Positions 9,916-49,585 of a stretch of 64,000 bases of DNA are shown one piece after another. The translations under genes were made by a program, and so were the position numbers. The stretch covers positions 153,771 through 217,770 of the forward strand of contig JBAZBR010000001.1 in the NCBI GenBank assembly GCA_041671325.1, written 5' to 3'. This DNA is from Patescibacteria group bacterium. GTDB taxonomy: Bacteria > Patescibacteriota > Patescibacteriia > PEXW01. The notes under the pieces are model-generated. The model ran no database searches. It saw only the letters and a list, made by a program, of their open reading frames with translations, and had not been told where the DNA came from. The stretch's first letter is position 1; each line of letters begins with the position of its first letter.

Positions 9916-10155
<240 letters not shown>

Positions 10156-10217
10156 TTTTCAATTAGCCTTGTCTTGCTCCGCAACTGCGGGGCTGGACAG
10201 GCTAGTGGATAATTCTA

Positions 10218-10323
10218 TTGTCATTTCGAGCGGAGCAAAGCGAAGTCGAGAAATCTCGCCTTTACTAGACTAGATTCCTCCACTCCGTTCAGCCAAATGG
10301 CTGAACTTCGGTCGGAATGACAA
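10218..10323. repeat. Foldback MITE-like element, copy A (terminal inverted repeats TTGTCATTTCGAGCG / CGGTCGGAATGACAA)
   Basis: The terminal inverted repeats and internal hairpins (cgagaaatctcg; gttcagcc/ggctgaac) were read directly. It is related to copies at 13661 and 15606. Confidence 0.7.
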
Positions 10324-13660: not shown

Positions 13661-13763
13661 TGTCATCCCGAGCGAAGTCGAGGGATCTCGTTAACCTAAA
13701 TATTTAAGAAATCGAGATTCCTCCGCTTCACCCCGCAATGCGGGGTTACGGTCGGAATGACAA
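13661..13763. repeat. Foldback MITE-like element, copy B. It starts immediately after the atpG stop codon. A partial extra copy with a CCCCGCGGCCGCGGGG palindrome lies at 13795-13836.
   Basis: The left end is TGTCATCCCGAGCGAAGTCGAGGGATCTCG. The right end is GATTCCTCC...CGGTCGGAATGACAA. Confidence 0.7.
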
Positions 13764-14199
13764 ATAAAAAACGTACATTACAAAATCTGATTACCCTCAT
13801 CCGGCCCCGCGGCCGCGGGGTCGCTCGCAATGACAGATAAAAAGTGTTCCTTACAAAACGAAAAAGCGCCTTGAAGTTATCGCAGCGCTTTAGTAAAGAT
13901 AATTCAATTACAGAGGTTTTCTGGACACTACGGTAAAAAATCCGTCAATGTAAAGAATCTGGAAGAGTTCAAATTTTTTAATACACAGGCCATTAAGGTA
14001 ACCCTTAAGTTCTGTGGGTGTAACCACTTCAACATGGTAATCATAAGCAATAACCACTTTTTTACCCCTTTCCTTTTGTGTTTATACAGGCTAATTTAAT
14101 TAGATATGTTAACAAAAGTATGAATATTTGTCAAGCCATTTATGAAATGAAAGTTTTAATTTCTAAATAACATTAGGAATTAAAATTTCTAGTTCATAA

Positions 14200-15605: not shown

Positions 15606-15743
15606 TTGTCACCCTGAGCCTGAGTATTATGAAGGCGAAGGGTCTCCACAAGTGTAAATAATATTTATAAAGATTCTCCCGCCTGCCTCGCCAGTGCGAG
15701 TACGGTGGGCAGGTCCCCCGCAGTCGCGGGGTCAGAATGACAA
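15606..15743. repeat. Foldback MITE-like element, copy C. It contains the inner palindrome cccgcctgcc...gtacggtgggcagg, which is also inserted in a pseudo-tRNA at 39116-39152.
   Basis: The terminal inverted repeats are TTGTCACCCTGAGCC / GGGGTCAGAATGACAA. It begins 6 nt after the atpD stop. Confidence 0.7.
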
Positions 15744-15750
15744 AAACCTT

Positions 15751-34231: not shown

Positions 34232-34257
34232 ATAATTTGTTTTCTCCCGCCACCTCT

Positions 34258-34333
34258 GCCGTTGTAGCTCAGCTGGTAGAGCAACTCCATGGTAAGGAGT
34301 AGGTCGCCGGTTCAATTCCGGCCAACGGCTCCA
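34258..34333 (+). tRNA. tRNA-Thr (anticodon GGT)
   Basis: The cloverleaf was folded by hand, with acceptor stem gccgttg/caacggc and anticodon loop aTGGTaa. A CCA end is encoded. It is enclosed by a 17-bp inverted repeat (34241-34257 / 34333-34349). Confidence 0.85.
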
Positions 34334-34444
34334 GAGGTGGCGGGAGAAATTACGCAACGGTTTTGTCCCGCACATTATAAATTCAATAGTTGTAAACGGG
34401 ATCTTCGAAATTGCATCAAAATTTGCCAGCGTAGCTCAGCTGGT

Positions 34445-34688
34445 ACCCCGCACAACTCACTACGTTCGTTTGCGGGGCAGGGAGCAACGGTTTTGTCTCC
34501 CTTCGGGAGATGTCCCGTAGGGACATAAACCTTGAAAAATAATTAGTTTTAAACCCGAGCCGCCCTAGCTCAGTGGTAGAGCAACTGTTTTGTAAACAGT
34601 AGGTCGTCAGTTCGACTCTGACGGGCGGCTCCAAACCCGGCGGGCAGAAACCGTAGGTCGTCCCGCGGCCGCGGGACCGCTGGCTCCA
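34445..34688 (+). pseudogene. degenerate tRNA-Thr(TGT)-like gene with hairpin insertions in the D-loop, anticodon loop and T-loop. The intact tRNA-Thr(TGT) is nested inside its anticodon-loop insertion.
   Basis: The 5' half gccagcgtagctcagctggta...gagcaacggttttgt and the 3' half aaaccgtaggtcgtc[ccgcggccgcgggac]cgctggctcca pair as acceptor and anticodon stems. Confidence 0.55.
34559..34633 (+). tRNA. tRNA-Thr (anticodon TGT)
   Basis: The cloverleaf was folded by hand, with anticodon loop ttTGTaa. A CCA end is encoded. Confidence 0.85.
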
Positions 34689-34830
34689 CGCGTCATCGCT
34701 TGTTCCACCCTTCGTGTACTCGAATTGTCGAGTCCACTGCGGGTTCCACAAGCGTGCCGCTTTCCCCAAATTTTTCTTTGAAAAATTTGGGGCTCCAATT
34801 CATTAATTTCAATAATTCAATTATTATCCT

Positions 34831-34986
34831 ATGTCACAAGAAAATCTTATCAAGTTAGAATGTACGGTTTGCAAGCACGTGAATTATCATTCAAAAAAGA
34901 ACAAAAAAACTTTGAAAAAACGTTTGGAATTGAAGAAACACTGTTCATGGTGCGAAAAGCATACTTTACACAAGGAAACTAAATAA
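34831..34986 (+). CDS. rpmG: 50S ribosomal protein L33 (zinc-ribbon form, 51 aa). It is not in the ORF track because it is under 60 aa.
   Basis: The ORF was read directly as [51 protein letters not shown], with CxxC...CxxC and a KKRLELKK segment. Confidence 0.7.
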
Positions 34987-34992
34987 TTGGAT

Positions 34993-35083
34993 GGGGGAAT
35001 AGTTCAGCGGTAGAACAGCGGTCTCCCCGCCTTCCACGCCCGACGTACCAGACGCACTCTGGCGGGGACGGGTCGGAGTACGG
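34993..35083 (+). pseudogene. degenerate tRNA 5' fragment (tRNA-Trp-like) with a GC-rich hairpin insertion after the anticodon
   Basis: gggggaatagttcagcggtagaacagcggtctcc parallels the intact tRNA-Trp 5' half. It is followed by the insert ccgcc...ggcgg and has no T-arm or acceptor 3' strand. Confidence 0.5.
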
Positions 35084-35108
35084 AAATTATATTATATTGC
35101 TAGTTGAT

Positions 35109-35182
35109 GGGGGCGTAGTTCAACAGTAGAACTTCGGTCTCCAAAACCGGTAACGAGGGTGCGACACCTTCCGCCCCCGCCA
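35109..35182 (+). tRNA. tRNA-Trp (anticodon CCA)
   Basis: The cloverleaf was folded by hand, with anticodon loop ctCCAaa. A CCA end is encoded. The T-loop tgcgaca is non-canonical. Confidence 0.75.
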
Positions 35183-35238
35183 ACTAGCGGTATACATGAT
35201 ATTATTCCTATTTTTTCTATATTTTTTAACAAAAATTA

Positions 35239-36609
35239 ATGCAACTTACAATATTATTTTTCATACTGTATATTGCCGTTGTAGTAATAATCGGTGTAAT
35301 ATCTTCACGAAAAGAGACTGAAGACGGTTTTATGATCGCAGAAAGGAAGGTGTCTGGTATCCAGGTTGCTGCCACAATGAGCGCTGGTTTTTTTGACGGT
35401 GCAACACTCGCGGTATATCTTGCGTATATTTACCTATACGGAATGTCGGCGGCATGGCTCTTTGTTGGTTTAGCCATTGGCTTTATTCTTTTGCGCCGTC
35501 GATATGCGCTGATAATAAAGAAAAGGGCGGATGAAATGCATGTGTACTCTATGCCTGAATATTTTTATAAAATTTTTGGGAAAAGAACTGGTTTAATGTT
35601 CACATTTTTACTAGTTCTGCAGTATTTTCTTCTGCTAATAGTAAACTTCATAATCGCTGGCAAAGTATTGTCATTAATTTTCCCTGTATCTTATTTCATT
35701 TCGGTAATGATCGGAGGTGCTGTAATCCTTACTTATCTTTTACTCGCCGGTTTTAAAGCCGTTATTAAAACAGACTTTTTTCAGTTAATAATAATGTTTA
35801 TAATGAGTTTAACAGTAGCAATATTCTTGTTTGGTAAAACCAATATACCAATTTCTGATTTTAGACCTTTTACTTTAGGAGTTGGCAATTTAGTAGGATT
35901 TTTACTGTTAGGATGTGTAGGAATAATGGTCGCACCCGACCTTTGGCAACGTATTTTCGCTACCAAAGATGAAATTAACCTCAAACGAGGATTGGGTTAT
36001 TCCGCAATCATCTTGCCATTACTTGCTATCATTATTAGTATTGTTGGTCTTGCAACTAAACAATTCTTTCCAAATATTGTCCCTGAAAATGCACTTATTA
36101 CAGGGTTCTCTGAGTTATTACCCTTTGGGCTTAAGGAGTTTGGCATTGTCCTGTTATATGCCGTCGCCCTTTCGTCGTCGGACACTATCACTTTCTTAGT
36201 ATCATCAATCTTTACCAGAGATTTGAAAAATTACACTAAACGGTTTGGCGAAGAATCAATGAAAAAACTTACTCGATTTTTCATGATAGTATTCGTATTA
36301 GTTGCCGTTCTTATTGCTATATTCTATCAAAACATTGTTGCCCTCGGTCTATCATTGGGCAGTTTAAGTTTGGCCTTATTCCCTGTCATTCTCGGCACCT
36401 TTTATTGGAAGCTAAACGAACGTGCGGTTTATTGGAGCTTGTTGATAGCTTTTCTGAGCGTTGTCGCAGTATTTTTAGCTGATGCTGTGAATCCGCAAAA
36501 TGTGGCAATTTCTCTACCTGTTGCGGTCATTAGTCTGTTTATCCTTAACAAAATTTTTAAGAAAAAAGAAAGAATAACCTCTGCGCCTAAAGTTACAATG
36601 ACTTTGTAG
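35239..36609 (+). CDS. sodium:solute symporter (SSS) family transporter
   Basis: It is a roughly 13-TM protein of 456 aa with an SSS-like N-terminal region. It lies between tRNA-Trp and a 29-nt repeat of the tRNA 3' part. Confidence 0.5.
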   Translation: MQLTILFFILYIAVVVIIGVISSRKETEDGFMIAERKVSGIQVAATMSAGFFDGATLAVYLAYIYLYGMSAAWLFVGLAIGFILLRRRYALIIKKRADEMHVYSMPEYFYKIFGKRTGLMFTFLLVLQYFLLLIVNFIIAGKVLSLIFPVSYFISVMIGGAVILTYLLLAGFKAVIKTDFFQLIIMFIMSLTVAIFLFGKTNIPISDFRPFTLGVGNLVGFLLLGCVGIMVAPDLWQRIFATKDEINLKRGLGYSAIILPLLAIIISIVGLATKQFFPNIVPENALITGFSELLPFGLKEFGIVLLYAVALSSSDTITFLVSSIFTRDLKNYTKRFGEESMKKLTRFFMIVFVLVAVLIAIFYQNIVALGLSLGSLSLALFPVILGTFYWKLNERAVYWSLLIAFLSVVAVFLADAVNPQNVAISLPVAVISLFILNKIFKKKERITSAPKVTMTL

Positions 36610-36661
36610 AAAACGTGGGCATTATCCAATATCACGGTACTATATCTGCCAAGCGGGCATG

Positions 36662-36690
36662 CAAAACCGGTAACGAGGGTGCGACACCTT
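36662..36690 (+). repeat. 29-nt perfect direct repeat of the tRNA-Trp 3' part (caaaaccggtaacgagggtgcgacacctt), equal to 35142-35170. It looks like an att-site scar.
   Basis: The exact match was read directly. Confidence 0.8.
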
Positions 36691-36721
36691 TTGCTCCTGT
36701 TGCATAACTATATCGAAATTT

Positions 36722-37318
36722 ATGTTACCAAAAATAATTCTTTTTGATGTCGGCAATGTGGTTATCGATGCCGATCAAGCAATTACTCATAAACTTCTTC
36801 AAAGTTTGGGTGTTCCAAAGGAACAGTCCGAATTATTTTATAAGAATAAGGAATACTTTGAGTTTAGCCGCGGTAATATTTGCGGGCAGGATTTTTATAA
36901 ATCCTTAATTAATGAGTATTTAAAAATTCCGCTCTCTTACGAGCAGGTGGTAAACGCCCACAACCAACATATTTATGGAGTTAATGAAAACGTTATTCAA
37001 ACCATTAAGGGCTTATCAAAGTACACAATTTTATTTGCGACAGATACCAACGAGTGGCAAACCGCCAGAGAGAAGGAGTTAATAAACTTGAAATTATATA
37101 GCCAACATATTTTTAGATCTCACGAATTACATAAGTTAAAAGTGGATGATGGATTCTTTGAGGGTATTCTTGAATTTCTTAACATTAATTCAGCCGAGGT
37201 TCTTTTTATCGATGATGATCCGCAAAAGTTAAATATGGCGATAAGACAGGGTTTGGAAGGGTTAATTTTTGAAAATAATCTTCAATTGAAACAATCTTTA
37301 AGCAATTTGGGTATTTAA
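36722..37318 (+). CDS. HAD-superfamily hydrolase
   Basis: It has motif I ILFDVGNVVID, motif II ILFATDTN and motif IV LFIDDD. Confidence 0.55.
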   Translation: MLPKIILFDVGNVVIDADQAITHKLLQSLGVPKEQSELFYKNKEYFEFSRGNICGQDFYKSLINEYLKIPLSYEQVVNAHNQHIYGVNENVIQTIKGLSKYTILFATDTNEWQTAREKELINLKLYSQHIFRSHELHKLKVDDGFFEGILEFLNINSAEVLFIDDDPQKLNMAIRQGLEGLIFENNLQLKQSLSNLGI

Positions 37319-37448
37319 GGCTTATTTAGAAATGAATTTAAAATAACCTGTTTGTCAATTAATACCGCCAAGAAAGCGGTTTTTTTGTTAGTGTTGACGG
37401 AATTTCATTATTGTGTGAAAATAAAAAAGCTACAATGCTTACCTTAAG

Positions 37449-37859
37449 ATGCGAAATCAACATCAAAAACAATTCCTAAAGCGGGTTTTAACCTCAAGAG
37501 GTATAATTGTTTTTGAGGTTTTAATTATAGCTTTTTTACTTATTGGCATTTCTAAGGAAATTATCAGGCGAGTTTCATTAAGGCAGGAAATAACGACCCT
37601 AGAAAAGCAAATTACCGAACTTGAATCGCAAAACCGAAGCTTGGGAGAATATGTAGCCTCGATAAATACCGAAAGTTTTAAAGAAAAAGAGGCGCGGAAG
37701 CGCTTAAACCTTCAAAAACCCGGAGAATCTTTACTAATCTTGCCGGAAACCAAGAGTTTATCAAATGAAACACCAGAAAATTCAATTTCAAACTCCATTG
37801 GAAAAGGAAAGTCGAACCCGCTTCGATGGTGGCGATATTTCTTTACTTCTTCAACTTAA
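37449..37859 (+). CDS. FtsB/DivIC-like septum formation initiator (TM plus coiled coil)
   Basis: It has an N-terminal TM helix and a leucine-zipper coiled coil LRQEITTLEKQITELESQNRSL. Confidence 0.55.
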   Translation: MRNQHQKQFLKRVLTSRGIIVFEVLIIAFLLIGISKEIIRRVSLRQEITTLEKQITELESQNRSLGEYVASINTESFKEKEARKRLNLQKPGESLLILPETKSLSNETPENSISNSIGKGKSNPLRWWRYFFTSST

Positions 37860-37866
37860 TTAATTT

Positions 37867-38955
37867 ATGACCGAAATTCATCCTGATCATGAGGCGGTTC
37901 GAGCAGAGATTGCGGAAGCAAAATTACCCGATCCAGAGCATCATGATTTAAAAAAATTACCTCCTCCGCACATCCATTGGCTTAGAAGGATAGCTATCTG
38001 GCTGGGCGGCTTGGTTGTTTTATTAATCCTGGTTTTTGCCGTAGGCTATTTGCGGTTCAGCTGGCAGAACAAAATATTATTATGGCCAGCCAAAGTTTTG
38101 CCCTATCCAGTCTCAATTGTGGGAGGTGAATGGCTTTCATATTATGATTATCAAGCTGATGTGCCAAATATAACCCAATACGTTGAAAGAAATTCCCCAC
38201 CAGATGCCGAGGTTACCAGAAATATGTCTTTAGACGTTTATTCCCGCAAGATAATCTTGAATAAGATGATTGGCGAGGAAATTATCAATAAAATTGGTCT
38301 AGCCAAAAAATTAACCGTCACCCAGGCTGATATTGATAAAACTTATCAAAATTACGTCACCCAGGCTGGCAGTACTGAAGCAGAAATTTCTGATACTATT
38401 AAAACTTTGTACAACTGGTCGGTGGATGAATTCAAACAAAAATTAATCAGTTCTCAGGTTATCCAGGAAAAATTGGCTGAATCATATTTTGCTGAAGTAA
38501 AAAATCAAGTTGAACAGCTCCGAACGGAAATCCTGAAAGACCCCAAAACTTTTGGTGAAGTTGCAAAAACACAAAGCGATGATACCTCAGCTGCCAAAGG
38601 TGGATTAATTGAGCCTATGAATACTGCTGCCCTTAAGACAGCCTATAGCGATTCGGCCGCGCAGATTGAAAGCCTGAAGGTTGGCGAAATCTCAAACGTT
38701 CTGGAAACCAGCCGAGGTTATGAAATTGTGTATTTGGAAAAGAAGGAAGCGGCAAAAAAAACGGCTGATGGTAATATGTTTACTTTGAGGGTAATTTCCA
38801 AAATGCCGGATTATAATACCTGGATCCAGGATTTAGTTAATGCAGAAATAAAGAAAAGCCGAATTATTGTTTTTGAACCAAGATTCAGATGGGAAGCGGA
38901 CTGCGGTATCTTAACTAAAGCGGAGCCAAGCTGCAAAACTACGGCTAGTAATTAA
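37867..38955 (+). CDS. membrane-anchored PpiC/parvulin-type peptidyl-prolyl isomerase (PrsA/SurA-like foldase)
   Basis: It has a TM anchor and a C-terminal parvulin domain (GGLIEP...GEISNVLETSRGYEIVYL). Confidence 0.55.
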   Translation: MTEIHPDHEAVRAEIAEAKLPDPEHHDLKKLPPPHIHWLRRIAIWLGGLVVLLILVFAVGYLRFSWQNKILLWPAKVLPYPVSIVGGEWLSYYDYQADVPNITQYVERNSPPDAEVTRNMSLDVYSRKIILNKMIGEEIINKIGLAKKLTVTQADIDKTYQNYVTQAGSTEAEISDTIKTLYNWSVDEFKQKLISSQVIQEKLAESYFAEVKNQVEQLRTEILKDPKTFGEVAKTQSDDTSAAKGGLIEPMNTAALKTAYSDSAAQIESLKVGEISNVLETSRGYEIVYLEKKEAAKKTADGNMFTLRVISKMPDYNTWIQDLVNAEIKKSRIIVFEPRFRWEADCGILTKAEPSCKTTASN

Positions 38956-39070
38956 ATTAAGTTTGGATCCCCGCGCGGCGGAACTGGCGCGTGGGGAAGG
39001 CGAGGCTTCGTGCGGAGTCTGGAGTGAGCAAGCGTTAGCGTGCTTACGGAAGGCGAAGCACGAAACGAGC

Positions 39071-39270
39071 TGGAGCCAGCGGTCCCGCGGCCGCGGGACG
39101 ACCTCTGCTTTACCTGCCCACCGTACTTCGCTTGGCGAAGGCAGGCGGGCGAAAGCATTGCTCTTCCGGGGAGTTCGGATCCCGTAAGCGGGATAGCCTC
39201 ACTCCCGTCTTGGCTCTCGCAAACTCAAGCAGTTGAGTTTGCTCGTCGCCTCGACCCAACTGAGCTAGAT
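39071..39270 (-). pseudogene. degenerate tRNA-Thr(CGT)-like copy immediately downstream (minus strand) of the intact gene. It has a 95-nt D-loop insertion, a 37-nt anticodon-loop insertion and the same palindromic T-arm and tail as the 34445-34688 pseudo-tRNA.
   Basis: The minus-strand read is ctagctcagttgg[ins]gagcaatgctttcg[cccgcctgccttcgccaagcgaagtacggtgggcagg]taaagcagaggtcgtcccgcggccgcgggaccgctggctcca. The 34-nt tail is identical to 34655-34688. Confidence 0.55.
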
Positions 39271-39346
39271 TGGAGCCACCCGTCGGAGTCGAACCGACGA
39301 CCTCTGCTTTACGAAAGCATTGCTCTACCAACTGAGCTAGGGTGGC
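39271..39346 (-). tRNA. tRNA-Thr (anticodon CGT)
   Basis: The cloverleaf was folded by hand on the minus strand, with anticodon loop ttCGTaa. A CCA end is encoded. Confidence 0.8.
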
Positions 39347-39361
39347 ATAAGATATGACGCG

Positions 39362-39435
39362 TGGAGCGGGTAACGGGAATCGGACCCGTATCTCATCCTT
39401 GGGAAGGATATGTACTACCACTGTACTATACCCGC
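39362..39435 (-). tRNA. tRNA-Gly (anticodon CCC)
   Basis: The cloverleaf was folded by hand on the minus strand, with acceptor gcgggta/tacccgc and anticodon loop ttCCCaa. Confidence 0.75.
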
Positions 39436-43042: not shown

Positions 43043-43069
43043 GAAAATTAATTTAATCTAGTGAATCAT

Positions 43070-43161
43070 TCCGGGATCGTCTTCCGCCAGAGGCGGATTA
43101 AGAAAATGGTAGGACAGCGGCCTTTTCCGCCCTAGGCGGACTCGCCTCCGGCGAGGAAGCC
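43070..43161 (+). pseudogene. degenerate tRNA-Gln 5' half with a hairpin insertion in the D-loop and two hairpins after the anticodon position. It lies upstream of a GIY-YIG gene.
   Basis: tccgggatcgtc[ttccgccagaggcggattaagaaaa]tggtaggacagcggcctttt[ccgccctaggcgg actcgcctccggcgagg]aagcc parallels intact tRNA-Gln positions 1-38. Confidence 0.55.
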
Positions 43162-43173
43162 AAGATATAATTT

Positions 43174-43371
43174 ATGTATTACGTTTACGTATTACTAAGT
43201 CATAAAGATAGAACAAGATATATTGGTTATTCTTCAAAAGAACCACATATTCGTCTCGCTGAACATAATAGTAGCAAAGGAATGTTTACACGTGGTCATC
43301 AACCCTGGATACTGACTTATTATGAAGAATTTGAACAGATAAAGACTGCTCGTGAGCGTGAGTTATTCTAA
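43174..43371 (+). CDS. GIY-YIG nuclease family protein (65 aa)
   Basis: It has an YVYVLLS...RTRYIGYS GIY-YIG core. Confidence 0.65.
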   Translation: MYYVYVLLSHKDRTRYIGYSSKEPHIRLAEHNSSKGMFTRGHQPWILTYYEEFEQIKTARERELF

Positions 43372-43425: not shown

Positions 43426-43499
43426 TCCGGGATCGTCTAATGGTAGGACAGCGGCCTTTGAAGCCGTTTATCTTGGTTCGAATCCAGGTCCCGGAGCCA
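43426..43499 (+). tRNA. tRNA-Gln (anticodon TTG)
   Basis: The cloverleaf was folded by hand, with acceptor tccggga/tcccgga, anticodon loop ctTTGaa and T-loop ttcgaat. Confidence 0.8.
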
Positions 43500-49337: not shown

Positions 49338-49585
49338 TGTCCTGCTTTTCAGTATGATTTTATCAGCTTCAAGACTTTTTTCAAGAGCAAATGCGTTAGC
49401 AGAATAGACAATTTTCGAGCCTAAACCTCACTTCGTGAGGCATGGTACCAAACCCCTTAGTAGATACTGAACCCCGTGTTCAGCGACTCTACTAAGGGTC
49501 ACATTCCGAAAGGGATGTGGGTGGCCGAAAGGTCGCTAGCTGGCGCGGGGTTTTGTGTTTTTACTCTCTTATCAAATCATAAACT

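Follow-up and report, generated by a model that had tools for sequence, protein, structure and literature searches.

How does a second, disabled copy of a tRNA gene come to lie directly behind the intact one, and why does it end in the same 34 nt as another disabled tRNA gene 4.4 kb away? The question is raised by a 64,000-nt stretch of DNA from a Patescibacteria group bacterium (contig JBAZBR010000001.1 of assembly GCA_041671325.1), the whole of which is referred to here as the window. On its minus strand the intact, functional tRNA-Thr(CGU) (39271-39346; ARAGORN, and Rfam tRNA at 64.4 bits) is followed by a shadow copy, shadow B, at what is called here locus B, while at locus A an intact tRNA-Thr(UGU) is found inside a disabled gene of the same identity. 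The answer developed below is that both disabled copies are relics of tRNA-Thr genes which may have been made redundant by mobile DNA, filled with palindromic hairpins and given a common tail by local recombination.

The window stems from a low-GC (42%) Parcubacteria/Patescibacteria genome and encodes an EF-Ts 63% identical to that of Parcubacteria SURF_31. Six intact tRNA genes were called in it by ARAGORN and Rfam (Thr-GGU, Thr-UGU, Trp, Thr-CGU, Gly-CCC and Gln), and a relic or a flanking helix accompanies five of the six, tRNA-Gly having none of its own. Comparison sequences from relatives and metagenomes are designated by L numbers; the nearest among the relatives retrieved is L161 (with L162 and L163), L165 being the other of the two nearest. 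The proteins of L161 are 72-92% identical to those of the window, with only 0.40 identity at four-fold sites, and over all genome pairs the latter value lies between 0.21 and 0.50, near saturation.

Composition of shadow B

The sequence, when read again, agreed with the original prediction of a copy that starts at tRNA position 8 and lies straight after the intact tRNA-Thr(CGU) on the minus strand, the strand to which all coordinates of locus B refer. Shadow B has no 5' acceptor strand and begins directly 3' of the CCA of the intact gene, with a 3-nt linker (atc) and tRNA positions 8-19 (tagctcagttgg), the same as in the intact gene (39256-39270). A GC-rich D-loop insert of about 92 nt follows (39164-39255), made of the hairpins gtcgagg...ccaagac and gggagtg...ctccccgg; the predicted insertion is hence present, whereas its length of 95 nt was reduced to 90-92 nt on recounting. 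The 3' junction of this insert (ccccgg/aagagca) recurs in the shadows of L025 and L026. Next come the 3' strand of the D-stem, the 5' strand of the anticodon stem and the first four bases of the anticodon loop (gagcaatgctttcg, 39150-39163), identical to the intact gene at 14/14 positions, and then, between anticodon positions 35 and 36, the predicted palindrome of 37 nt (39149-39113), a hairpin named hpA (cccgcctgcc...ggtgggcagg) that belongs to a dispersed repeat family. The remainder of the anticodon loop and the CGU-type 3' strand of the anticodon stem (taaagcag, 39105-39112) lead into tail B (39071-39104), which consists of aggtcg, a palindrome in place of the T-arm core, the acceptor 3' strand CGCTGGC and TCCA, and which equals the tail of locus A at 34/34 positions.

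The blocks common to shadow B and the adjoining tRNA-Thr(CGU) measure 12+14+16 nt, and the A27.G43 state of the shadow is also present in the intact gene and in L161. Apart from its tail, shadow B is, as these blocks indicate, derived from tRNA-Thr(CGU). No shadow is present between tRNA-Thr(CGU) and its trailer in L161 and L165, and no strand complementary to CGCTGGC exists in locus B.

Upstream, the unit opens with tRNA-Gly(CCC) (39362-39435; ARAGORN, Rfam), just ahead of tRNA-Thr(CGU), and is preceded by a promoter-like TTGTCA-17-TAAAAT at 39475-39447. No terminator was predicted between the Gly-Thr(CGU) unit and the convergent gene, leaving a GC-rich trailer of 310 nt as the sole structured 3' end. 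Shadow B is probably transcribed only within this long structured trailer and yields no tRNA. Part of the trailer is a GC-rich element of two hairpins, designated E (38962-39070), which starts at the first base after the CCA of the tail and matches copies in relatives (nhmmer, E=5.5e-16). In these relatives (L020, L022, L024, L025 and L026), all 10 of the 10 full-length copies start right after a CCA, behind Thr, Gly and Trp genes as well as behind relic tails. No Rfam family corresponds to E.

A tRNA-Thr(UGU) nested in a disabled tRNA-Thr(UGU)

The other copy had been described as a Thr(TGT) pseudo-gene. It is a pseudo-gene, yet not a fragment downstream of the intact tRNA-Thr(TGT), since its 5' half lies upstream and the intact gene is nested inside it. 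All features of this locus are on the plus strand. The outer gene opens with GCCAGCG-TAGCTCAGCTGGTA... at 34425, and its 5' half (34425-34496) is made of GCCAGCG-tagctcagctggta, a D-loop hairpin insert of 36 nt (34446-34481) homologous to an insert in L043, and gagcaacggttttgt. At site 36/37 the anticodon loop is opened by a composite insert. Its left part (34497-34558) contains the hairpins ctcccttcgggag and atgtcccgtagggacat, which are also found in L001 with compensatory differences, and an AT-rich spacer; the inner, intact tRNA-Thr(UGU) follows (34559-34633; ARAGORN, Rfam 71.3 bits), and the right part (aaacccggcgggca, 34634-34647) finishes with a GC-rich ggcgggcag resembling the 3' arm of hpA. 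Tail A (34655-34688), the 3' end of the disabled resident gene, closes the locus, its CGCTGGC pairing with the GCCAGCG at 34425. In the minimum-free-energy fold this pairing likewise closes around the inner tRNA; the locus A fold is more stable than its shuffles at z=-6.4, and a second fold at z=-4.1. In tail A the 14-nt T-arm core cggtccaaatccga (L161 version) is replaced by a 15-nt palindrome, cccgcggccgcggga, and the same palindrome occupies the T-arm core of tail B, as the predicted replacement of the T-loop had implied.

At the orthologous site L161 has an intact tRNA-Thr(UGU) (GCCAGCGtagctcagctggtagagcaacggttttgtaaaccgtaggtcgtcggtccaaatccgacCGCTGGCtcca), namely a GCCAGCG...CGCTGGCTCCA gene kept behind the same leader, which differs by a few bases only (atcctcgaaattgcagtaaaattt in L161, atcttcgaaattgcatcaaaattt in the window). 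The tRNA-like sequence of the outer gene falls into four blocks (21+15+14+12 nt), which are collinear with the L161 gene and identical to it at 62/62 positions; the T-arm core cggtccaaatccga is the sole part of that gene missing from them. The inner gene is a different allele (acceptor GCCGCCC/GGGCGGC, anticodon stem actgt/acagt) and matches the L161 gene at only 62/76 positions. The outer gene is accordingly the recently disabled resident and the inner gene a replacement allele; with four-fold sites only 0.40 identical, so exact an outer gene must have been under tRNA-type selection until recently. Three changes disable the resident, namely the D-loop hairpin, the anticodon-loop insert with a whole tRNA and the swap of the T-arm core. 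An older relic, S1 (gcaacggttttgt with a hairpin at 36/37), precedes it together with the leader of the resident gene (34354-34424), this segment being 83% identical to L161.

In both loci, then, the tRNA-like blocks are collinear with, and identical to, a functional gene of the same locus or its ortholog, as in a tRNA relic, and the 3' strands of the anticodon stems are isoacceptor-specific as foreseen (agcag in one copy, accgt in the other). Neither disabled copy can work as a tRNA. Both are without a T-loop and both have an interrupted anticodon loop, shadow B by 37 nt and the outer gene of locus A by about 150 nt; shadow B, in addition, lacks the 5' acceptor strand. The label of pseudo-gene is therefore apt. 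ARAGORN and Rfam call neither of them. At gathering thresholds over the whole window, and at E<=10 over 34.1-39.6 kb, Rfam returned only the six tRNAs and a LOOT RNA, with no intron, ribozyme, tmRNA, Y-RNA-like or T-box match in the shadows and trailer. A non-ribosomal tRNA of the Fem type was also considered and ruled out, the anticodon loop and the acceptor being destroyed.

Identity and origin of the 34-nt tail

The shared 34-mer (AGGTCGTCCCGCGGCCGCGGGACCGCTGGCTCCA) is present in exactly two copies in the window, at 34655-34688 on the plus strand and 39071-39104 on the minus strand, in inverted orientation. The recount gave the full 34/34 identity, and in 0/100 shuffles was a 34-mer match obtained, even at 3 mismatches. 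In an independent Logan assembly (run SRR6484324), the part retrieved, 34867-39100, shows 100% identity to the window. With a stated length of 4442 nt, its contig would span about 34659-39100 and end about 30 nt inside each tail, as expected of a true inverted repeat in a k=31 graph. The pair is consequently not the product of a collapsed assembly repeat; this support covers both outer junctions of the tails, the contigs breaking at the repeats before the shadow-to-tail junctions are reached.

The direction of copying is given by the acceptor strand. CGCTGGC is native to locus A, where alone it has its partner GCCAGCG, it is unpartnered in locus B, and the shadow is absent from the two nearest relatives; tail B is for these reasons a pasted copy of tail A, the junction lying at AGGTCG, a sequence that all Thr tRNAs share. 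Of the two origins that the original prediction had offered, recombination with one source is thus the one supported, the acceptor strand of the tail being native to locus A and the corresponding L161 gene intact.

An inversion between the inverted tails was also considered as an explanation for the changed place of a neighbouring element and was rejected as the simple explanation, the order and orientation of the genes between the tails being the same in all relatives. This element, A8, is 92 nt long with a terminator-like hairpin end, and its copies in the window (34704-34795) and in L161 (3566-3665, minus strand) are 83% identical. It stands after tail A in the window; in L161 it stands at the other locus and on the other strand, between tRNA-Gly and tRNA-Thr(CGU), and locus A of L161 has a partial second copy.

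Hairpin repeats and replacement of the T-arm

The hairpins inserted in the two relics are dispersed repeats. A second copy of hpA lies in the atpD-atpC spacer (15679-15714, plus strand), followed there by a cccccgcagtcgcgggg hairpin; near-copies are also present in L100 and L029, and related hairpins in L062, L001 and L161. The core of the CCGCGGCCGCGG palindrome is likewise found outside the tRNA loci, in the atpG-atpD spacer (ccccgcggccgcgggg, 13805-13820, plus strand), its positions in the window being 34662, 39084 and 13806. Four families were defined (TCCCGC..GCGGGA, TCCGCC..GGCGGA, CCCCGC..GCGGGG and CCCGCC..GGCGGG), each observed 7-21 times in 285 kb against 0.1-1.2 in block shuffles, a 12- to 140-fold excess, so that related copies occur at unrelated sites beyond chance. 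They are moreover concentrated at tRNA genes: 5/9 hairpins of the window lie within 400 nt of one, against 5.6% of the sequence (p=6e-5), and among relatives ascertained through proteins the count is 20/25 (p=8e-14).

Tails in which aggtcg is followed by a hairpin and an acceptor 3' strand were found in eight further sequences from relatives and other Patescibacteria (L019, L024, L025, L029, L043, L054, L055 and L062), most of them ending in TCCA and one, L054, belonging to tRNA-Asn. The swapped stem has the form GTCCCGC-loop-GCGGGAC in 6/8 (L019, L024, L029, L043, L055 and L062); L054 has only the inner TCCCGC/GCGGGA within a longer stem, and L025 has CCCCGCC-loop-GGCGGGG. Beside the hairpin stand six other kinds of acceptor strand, seven with that of the window, and wherever a same-identity intact tRNA or a 5' partner is visible the strand matches it. 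The unit shared among these tails is, from this comparison, the hairpin and not the tRNA 3' half. Consequently, the idea of a mobile tRNA-3'-half module, of which the window holds only two copies, is not supported: the two tails are identical, yet among all tails the palindromic hairpin alone behaves like a repeat and the acceptor does not. In its main form the stem of the hairpin is invariant and its loop varies from 0 to 5 nt, a combination that suits a DNA palindrome.

A pattern scan of metagenomes gave about 120 loci, mostly chance palindromes in GC-rich genomes. The informative low-GC loci were L029, L043, L054, L055 and L062/L142, in tRNA context, and L100, a dispersed repeat; since the pattern required GGTCG, the scan does not bear on a tRNA derivation of the dispersed hairpins. 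In viral contigs the T-hairpin pattern had ten matches, all of 60-74% GC and without tRNA context, and distant-mode BLAST of the shadow and trailer against phage and plasmid collections gave no match.

Composite repeats resembling miniature inverted-repeat transposable elements were also seen in the spacers of the atp operon (13661-13845 and 15606-15745). They contain GC hairpins and have inverted ends, TGTCAyyCyGA ... TCrGAATGACA; similar '...CTCGCAATGACA' units are present in many low-GC metagenome contigs (L039, L040, L100, L109 and L127).

Relics at other tRNA genes

Relics associated with nuclease or integrase signatures are present at other tRNA genes. On the plus strand of the window, a tRNA-Gln 5' relic with two TCCGCC..GGCGGA hairpins (43069-43165) precedes an open reading frame (ORF) for a GIY-YIG nuclease of 65 aa (43174-43371; Pfam PF01541, E=1.5e-11), which is followed by the intact tRNA-Gln (43426-43499). 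The same triplet of 5' relic, GIY-YIG ORF and intact tRNA gene was found at six further loci (L161 Gln, L025 Trp with its ORF at 10004-10249, L012, L014 and L011 Tyr, and L015 Glu), and the tRNA-Gln of L026 has neither relic nor ORF. Searches of NCBIfam and of PDB sequences with the GIY-YIG protein gave no match by which to name its family. Two of the Tyr relics upstream of the nuclease ORF have peculiarities of their own: in L014 (10840-10940) the anticodon stem has become a GC-only stem of equal length while the loop keeps TGTAA, and in L011 (10900-11060) the T-loop is split by repeated hairpins.

The intact tRNA-Trp gene (35109-35182), also on the plus strand, is preceded by a 5' relic (34992-35085) whose anticodon loop contains a cccgcc...ggcgggg hairpin. 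The 3' half of the intact gene (35142-35177) is repeated directly, with 92% identity, at 36662-36697, and the two repeats bracket a transporter ORF of the SSF family (35239-36609), absent from this position in relatives. This repeat is, by its form, an integrase-type scar at which no integrase is left. In L001, a tyrosine integrase ORF directly follows tRNA-Thr(GGU), with duplicated 5' fragments upstream, and the region of L165 contains an integrase fragment.

At 34241-34349 the tRNA-Thr(GGU) of the window is enclosed in a perfect leader/trailer helix of 16-18 bp (ttctcccgccacctc / gaggtggcgggagaa). A CACCTC/GAGGTG helix with covarying outer pairs also flanks this gene in L043 and L024, where it is nested in an outer relic. 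Layouts with a tRNA gene inside a relic are therefore not confined to locus A; they occur in L062 (anticodon loop), L043 and L001 (D-loop) and L024. A terminal sequence, tgacccccatatactagacacgacggtctagac or its complement, is common to L001 (12700-12760) and L161 (130-190) beside disrupted tRNA-Thr(GGU) and looks like the end of one mobile element family.

Proposed origin of the relics and alternative explanations

Taken together, what the pieces are and where they come from, the direction of tail copying, the repeat nature and tRNA bias of the hairpins and the association of other relics with nuclease or integrase signatures favour, at a probability of roughly 0.55, a replacement of tRNA genes driven by mobile DNA and followed by hairpin colonisation and local recombination. 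Shadow B and the outer gene of locus A would be redundant tRNA-Thr copies, disabled after a duplication or replacement by DNA that restored a working copy. Redundancy would first be created by tRNA-targeting mobile DNA, the candidates being GIY-YIG cassettes, integrative elements and a helix-flanked tRNA cassette. The dispensable copy would then quickly fill with palindromic hairpin repeats rich in GC, which either prefer its stem-loops (D-loop, anticodon loop and T-arm) or exchange with them, and short-patch recombination or template switching at the shared AGGTCG...TCCA would finally have moved the tail of locus A to the CGU-type relic.

Several observations weigh against this proposal. No nuclease, integrase or transposase gene is present at locus A or B, no integrase ORF was found between 32 and 42 kb, and no credible Y1 transposase was found in the 64-kb window of this contig of at least 618 kb, where tblastn with IS200 TnpA gave only a chance-level match, within a secreted protein of 907 aa. 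For the 92-nt insert in the D-loop of shadow B, the window offers no second copy. Between the window and L161 the tRNA-Gln relic has kept about 86% identity, as against only 54% for the adjoining GIY-YIG protein. The swaps are arm-precise: in Thr as in Asn relics a hairpin of almost equal length takes the place of the whole T-arm (positions 49-65), which fits a constraint at the level of structure as well as a mechanism at the level of DNA. Finally, E shows compensatory changes at 18/34 consensus pairs, and S1 with the leader, A8, E and the Gln relic are 81-86% identical between the window and L161 where four-fold sites are at 40%, a conservation of the flanks that looks like selection and not free decay. 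With four-fold sites near saturation, such identity means that the conserved flank modules are under constraint, have spread horizontally or have been homogenised. What speaks against an essential role is that each genome has its own set and order of relics, and that shadow B is missing from the nearest relatives.

More tentatively, the hairpins themselves may represent a new kind of tRNA-gene-targeting mobile DNA of Patescibacteria, palindromes that insert into or exchange with tRNA stem-loops. Some hairpin units would then carry a whole replacement tRNA in their loop, giving a tRNA nested in a tRNA, the disabled host copy could be kept by selection as part of a structured precursor, and the recurrent, arm-precise swap of the T-arm for GTCCCGC...GCGGGAC would betray a specific enzyme with hairpin DNA as its substrate.

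Selection is given the leading part in a less probable alternative, according to which the shadows, tails and E are spacer RNAs of tRNA operons, acting as processing scaffolds, in 3'-end protection or termination, or as decoys for tRNA-binding factors, and the nested layout is a maintained precursor architecture instead of debris. The conservation of the flanks, the compensatory pairs of E and its constant start at +1 after CCA, and the arm-precise, length-preserving swaps all speak for it. So do the covarying leader-trailer helix kept around tRNA-Thr(GGU) in the window, L043 and L024, the lack of a canonical terminator after Gly-Thr(CGU), whose trailer is the only structured 3' end, the folds that surpass their shuffles in stability and the compensatory differences between hairpins of different genomes (gggTgc/gcAccc vs gggCgc/gcGccc; gatccc/gggatc vs gacccc/ggggtc). 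However, shadow B is missing from L161 and L165 and relics vary from genome to genome, tail B has no acceptor partner, and the same hairpins stand in non-tRNA spacers. An invariant stem without covariation and a loop that is free to vary and may have as few as 0-2 nt suit a DNA palindrome better than an RNA hairpin, and the conservation may also be explained by selection on selfish elements or by gene conversion with the adjoining tRNA.

The shadow and tails are unlikely to be attachment-site (att) scars left by tyrosine-integrase elements that entered the anticodon loop or T-loop of tRNA-Thr and were since deleted. That integrating elements give rise to partial tRNA genes is well documented (PMC9897764). 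A clean example is provided in the window by the direct repeat of the tRNA-Trp 3' half around an extra gene, and the integrase ORF of L001 and the integrase fragment of L165 point the same way. The insert sites 35/36, 36/37 and T-loop would also coincide with integrase crossover sublocations that Williams reportedly distinguished in 2002. The form expected, however, is a simple tRNA 3' direct repeat separated by element DNA, as seen only at tRNA-Trp, whereas shadow B spans positions 8-76 with three hairpin modules and abuts the gene across its 3-nt linker. Nesting would require an element with a whole tRNA, the T-arm is replaced and not duplicated, the inverted tails are not the attL and attR of one element, and no integrase lies near either locus in the window.

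It is very improbable that the inserts of shadow B are introns, of the archaeal bulge-helix-bulge type or of group I, which are removed from the transcript to give a working tRNA. The insertions do fall within loops, one in the D-loop and one in the anticodon loop (35/36), and in L001 (11870-12160) a tRNA-Thr(GGU) with otherwise intact arms is opened once, at 36/37, by about 190 nt that may be a true intron, possibly of group I, despite the lack of an Rfam match. With all inserts removed, shadow B would nevertheless still be without a T-loop (positions 50-64) and a 5' acceptor strand, by which the explanation is refuted for it. At the flanks of its hairpins the motif of a 4-bp helix between two 3-nt bulges is missing, the junctions being those of plain hairpins, no group I or other intron or ribozyme was recognised by Rfam, and an intact isoacceptor gene is directly adjacent. 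Just as negligible is a chimeric assembly or collapsed repeat mimicking the identical tails, for although short-read Logan contigs break at the tRNA region, the SRR6484324 contig confirms both outer junctions and independently assembled relatives show like structures.

Relation to known systems and significance

The feature is a tRNA gene relic combined with hairpin repeats resembling repetitive extragenic palindromes (REP), and each component has known counterparts. Non-functional partial tRNA genes left by integrating elements are well known in prokaryotes (PMC9897764), where tRNA-derived debris beside an intact gene of the same identity is attributed to tRNA-targeting mobile DNA that restores a working copy, and the tRNA-Trp 3'-half repeat of the window is a textbook case. 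Unlike these, shadow B has no element between itself and the gene, its loops are filled with hairpins and its tail comes from another locus, and locus A is nested. Free-standing GIY-YIG homing endonucleases are likewise known in tRNA gene clusters, for example SegB of phage T4 (PMC2988022, PMC13096335). With them the present cassettes share small ORFs beside tRNA genes and presence/absence variation (Gln of the window and Trp of L025, each compared with L026), but here a hairpin-studded 5' relic of the same tRNA precedes each putative nuclease ORF and an intact gene follows it, and the two Thr loci have no such ORF.

Dispersed GC-rich palindromes of AT-rich genomes include the GC clusters of yeast mitochondria (PMC4478555) and the hairpin elements of sponge mitochondria (PMC2800124). 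Like these mitochondrial clusters, REP and bacterial interspersed mosaic elements, and the palindromic elements of Rickettsia, the hairpins described here are short GC-rich families in low-GC spacers that also land in RNA genes. They differ from REP-like systems in being concentrated at tRNA genes, in replacing exact stem-loops, up to a whole T-arm (positions 49-65), and in that no associated transposase was found in the 64-kb window. The split and multi-intron tRNAs of Nanoarchaeota and Thermoproteales present a similar picture of interruptions in the D-loop, anticodon loop and T-region, GC-rich complementary flanks and halves set apart; by contrast, the present loci are bacterial and have no bulge-helix-bulge and no T-loop, a complete isoacceptor is present and no tRNA product is possible.

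In full-text literature no description of hairpin-swapped or nested tRNA relics in Candidate Phyla Radiation bacteria or Patescibacteria was found, and an unusually active turnover of tRNA genes in a small-genome Parcubacteria lineage has apparently gone undescribed. Arm-precise swaps, nesting and conserved trailers together hint at an unfamiliar mechanism. In small genomes, tRNA genes normally belong to what changes least; here they are replaced, nested and knocked out faster than point mutation accumulates in the relics. With an intact ortholog in L161, locus A gives a dated example of the way in which an essential RNA gene present in a single copy can be exchanged while its function is kept, and it brings to notice hairpin repeats with a marked preference for tRNA stem-loops. 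For annotation, such relics explain odd pseudo-tRNA calls in Candidate Phyla Radiation genomes, which are not to be taken for extra isoacceptors. Should the conserved trailers or relics be functional RNA, they would be new elements of tRNA-operon processing or stability in unculturable organisms.

Other features of the window

The GC-rich block at 52.6-55.3 kb corresponds to a secreted M23/FG-GAP protein. The LOOT RNA (RF03000) is located at 49418-49537 and scores 84 bits, far over the gathering score.

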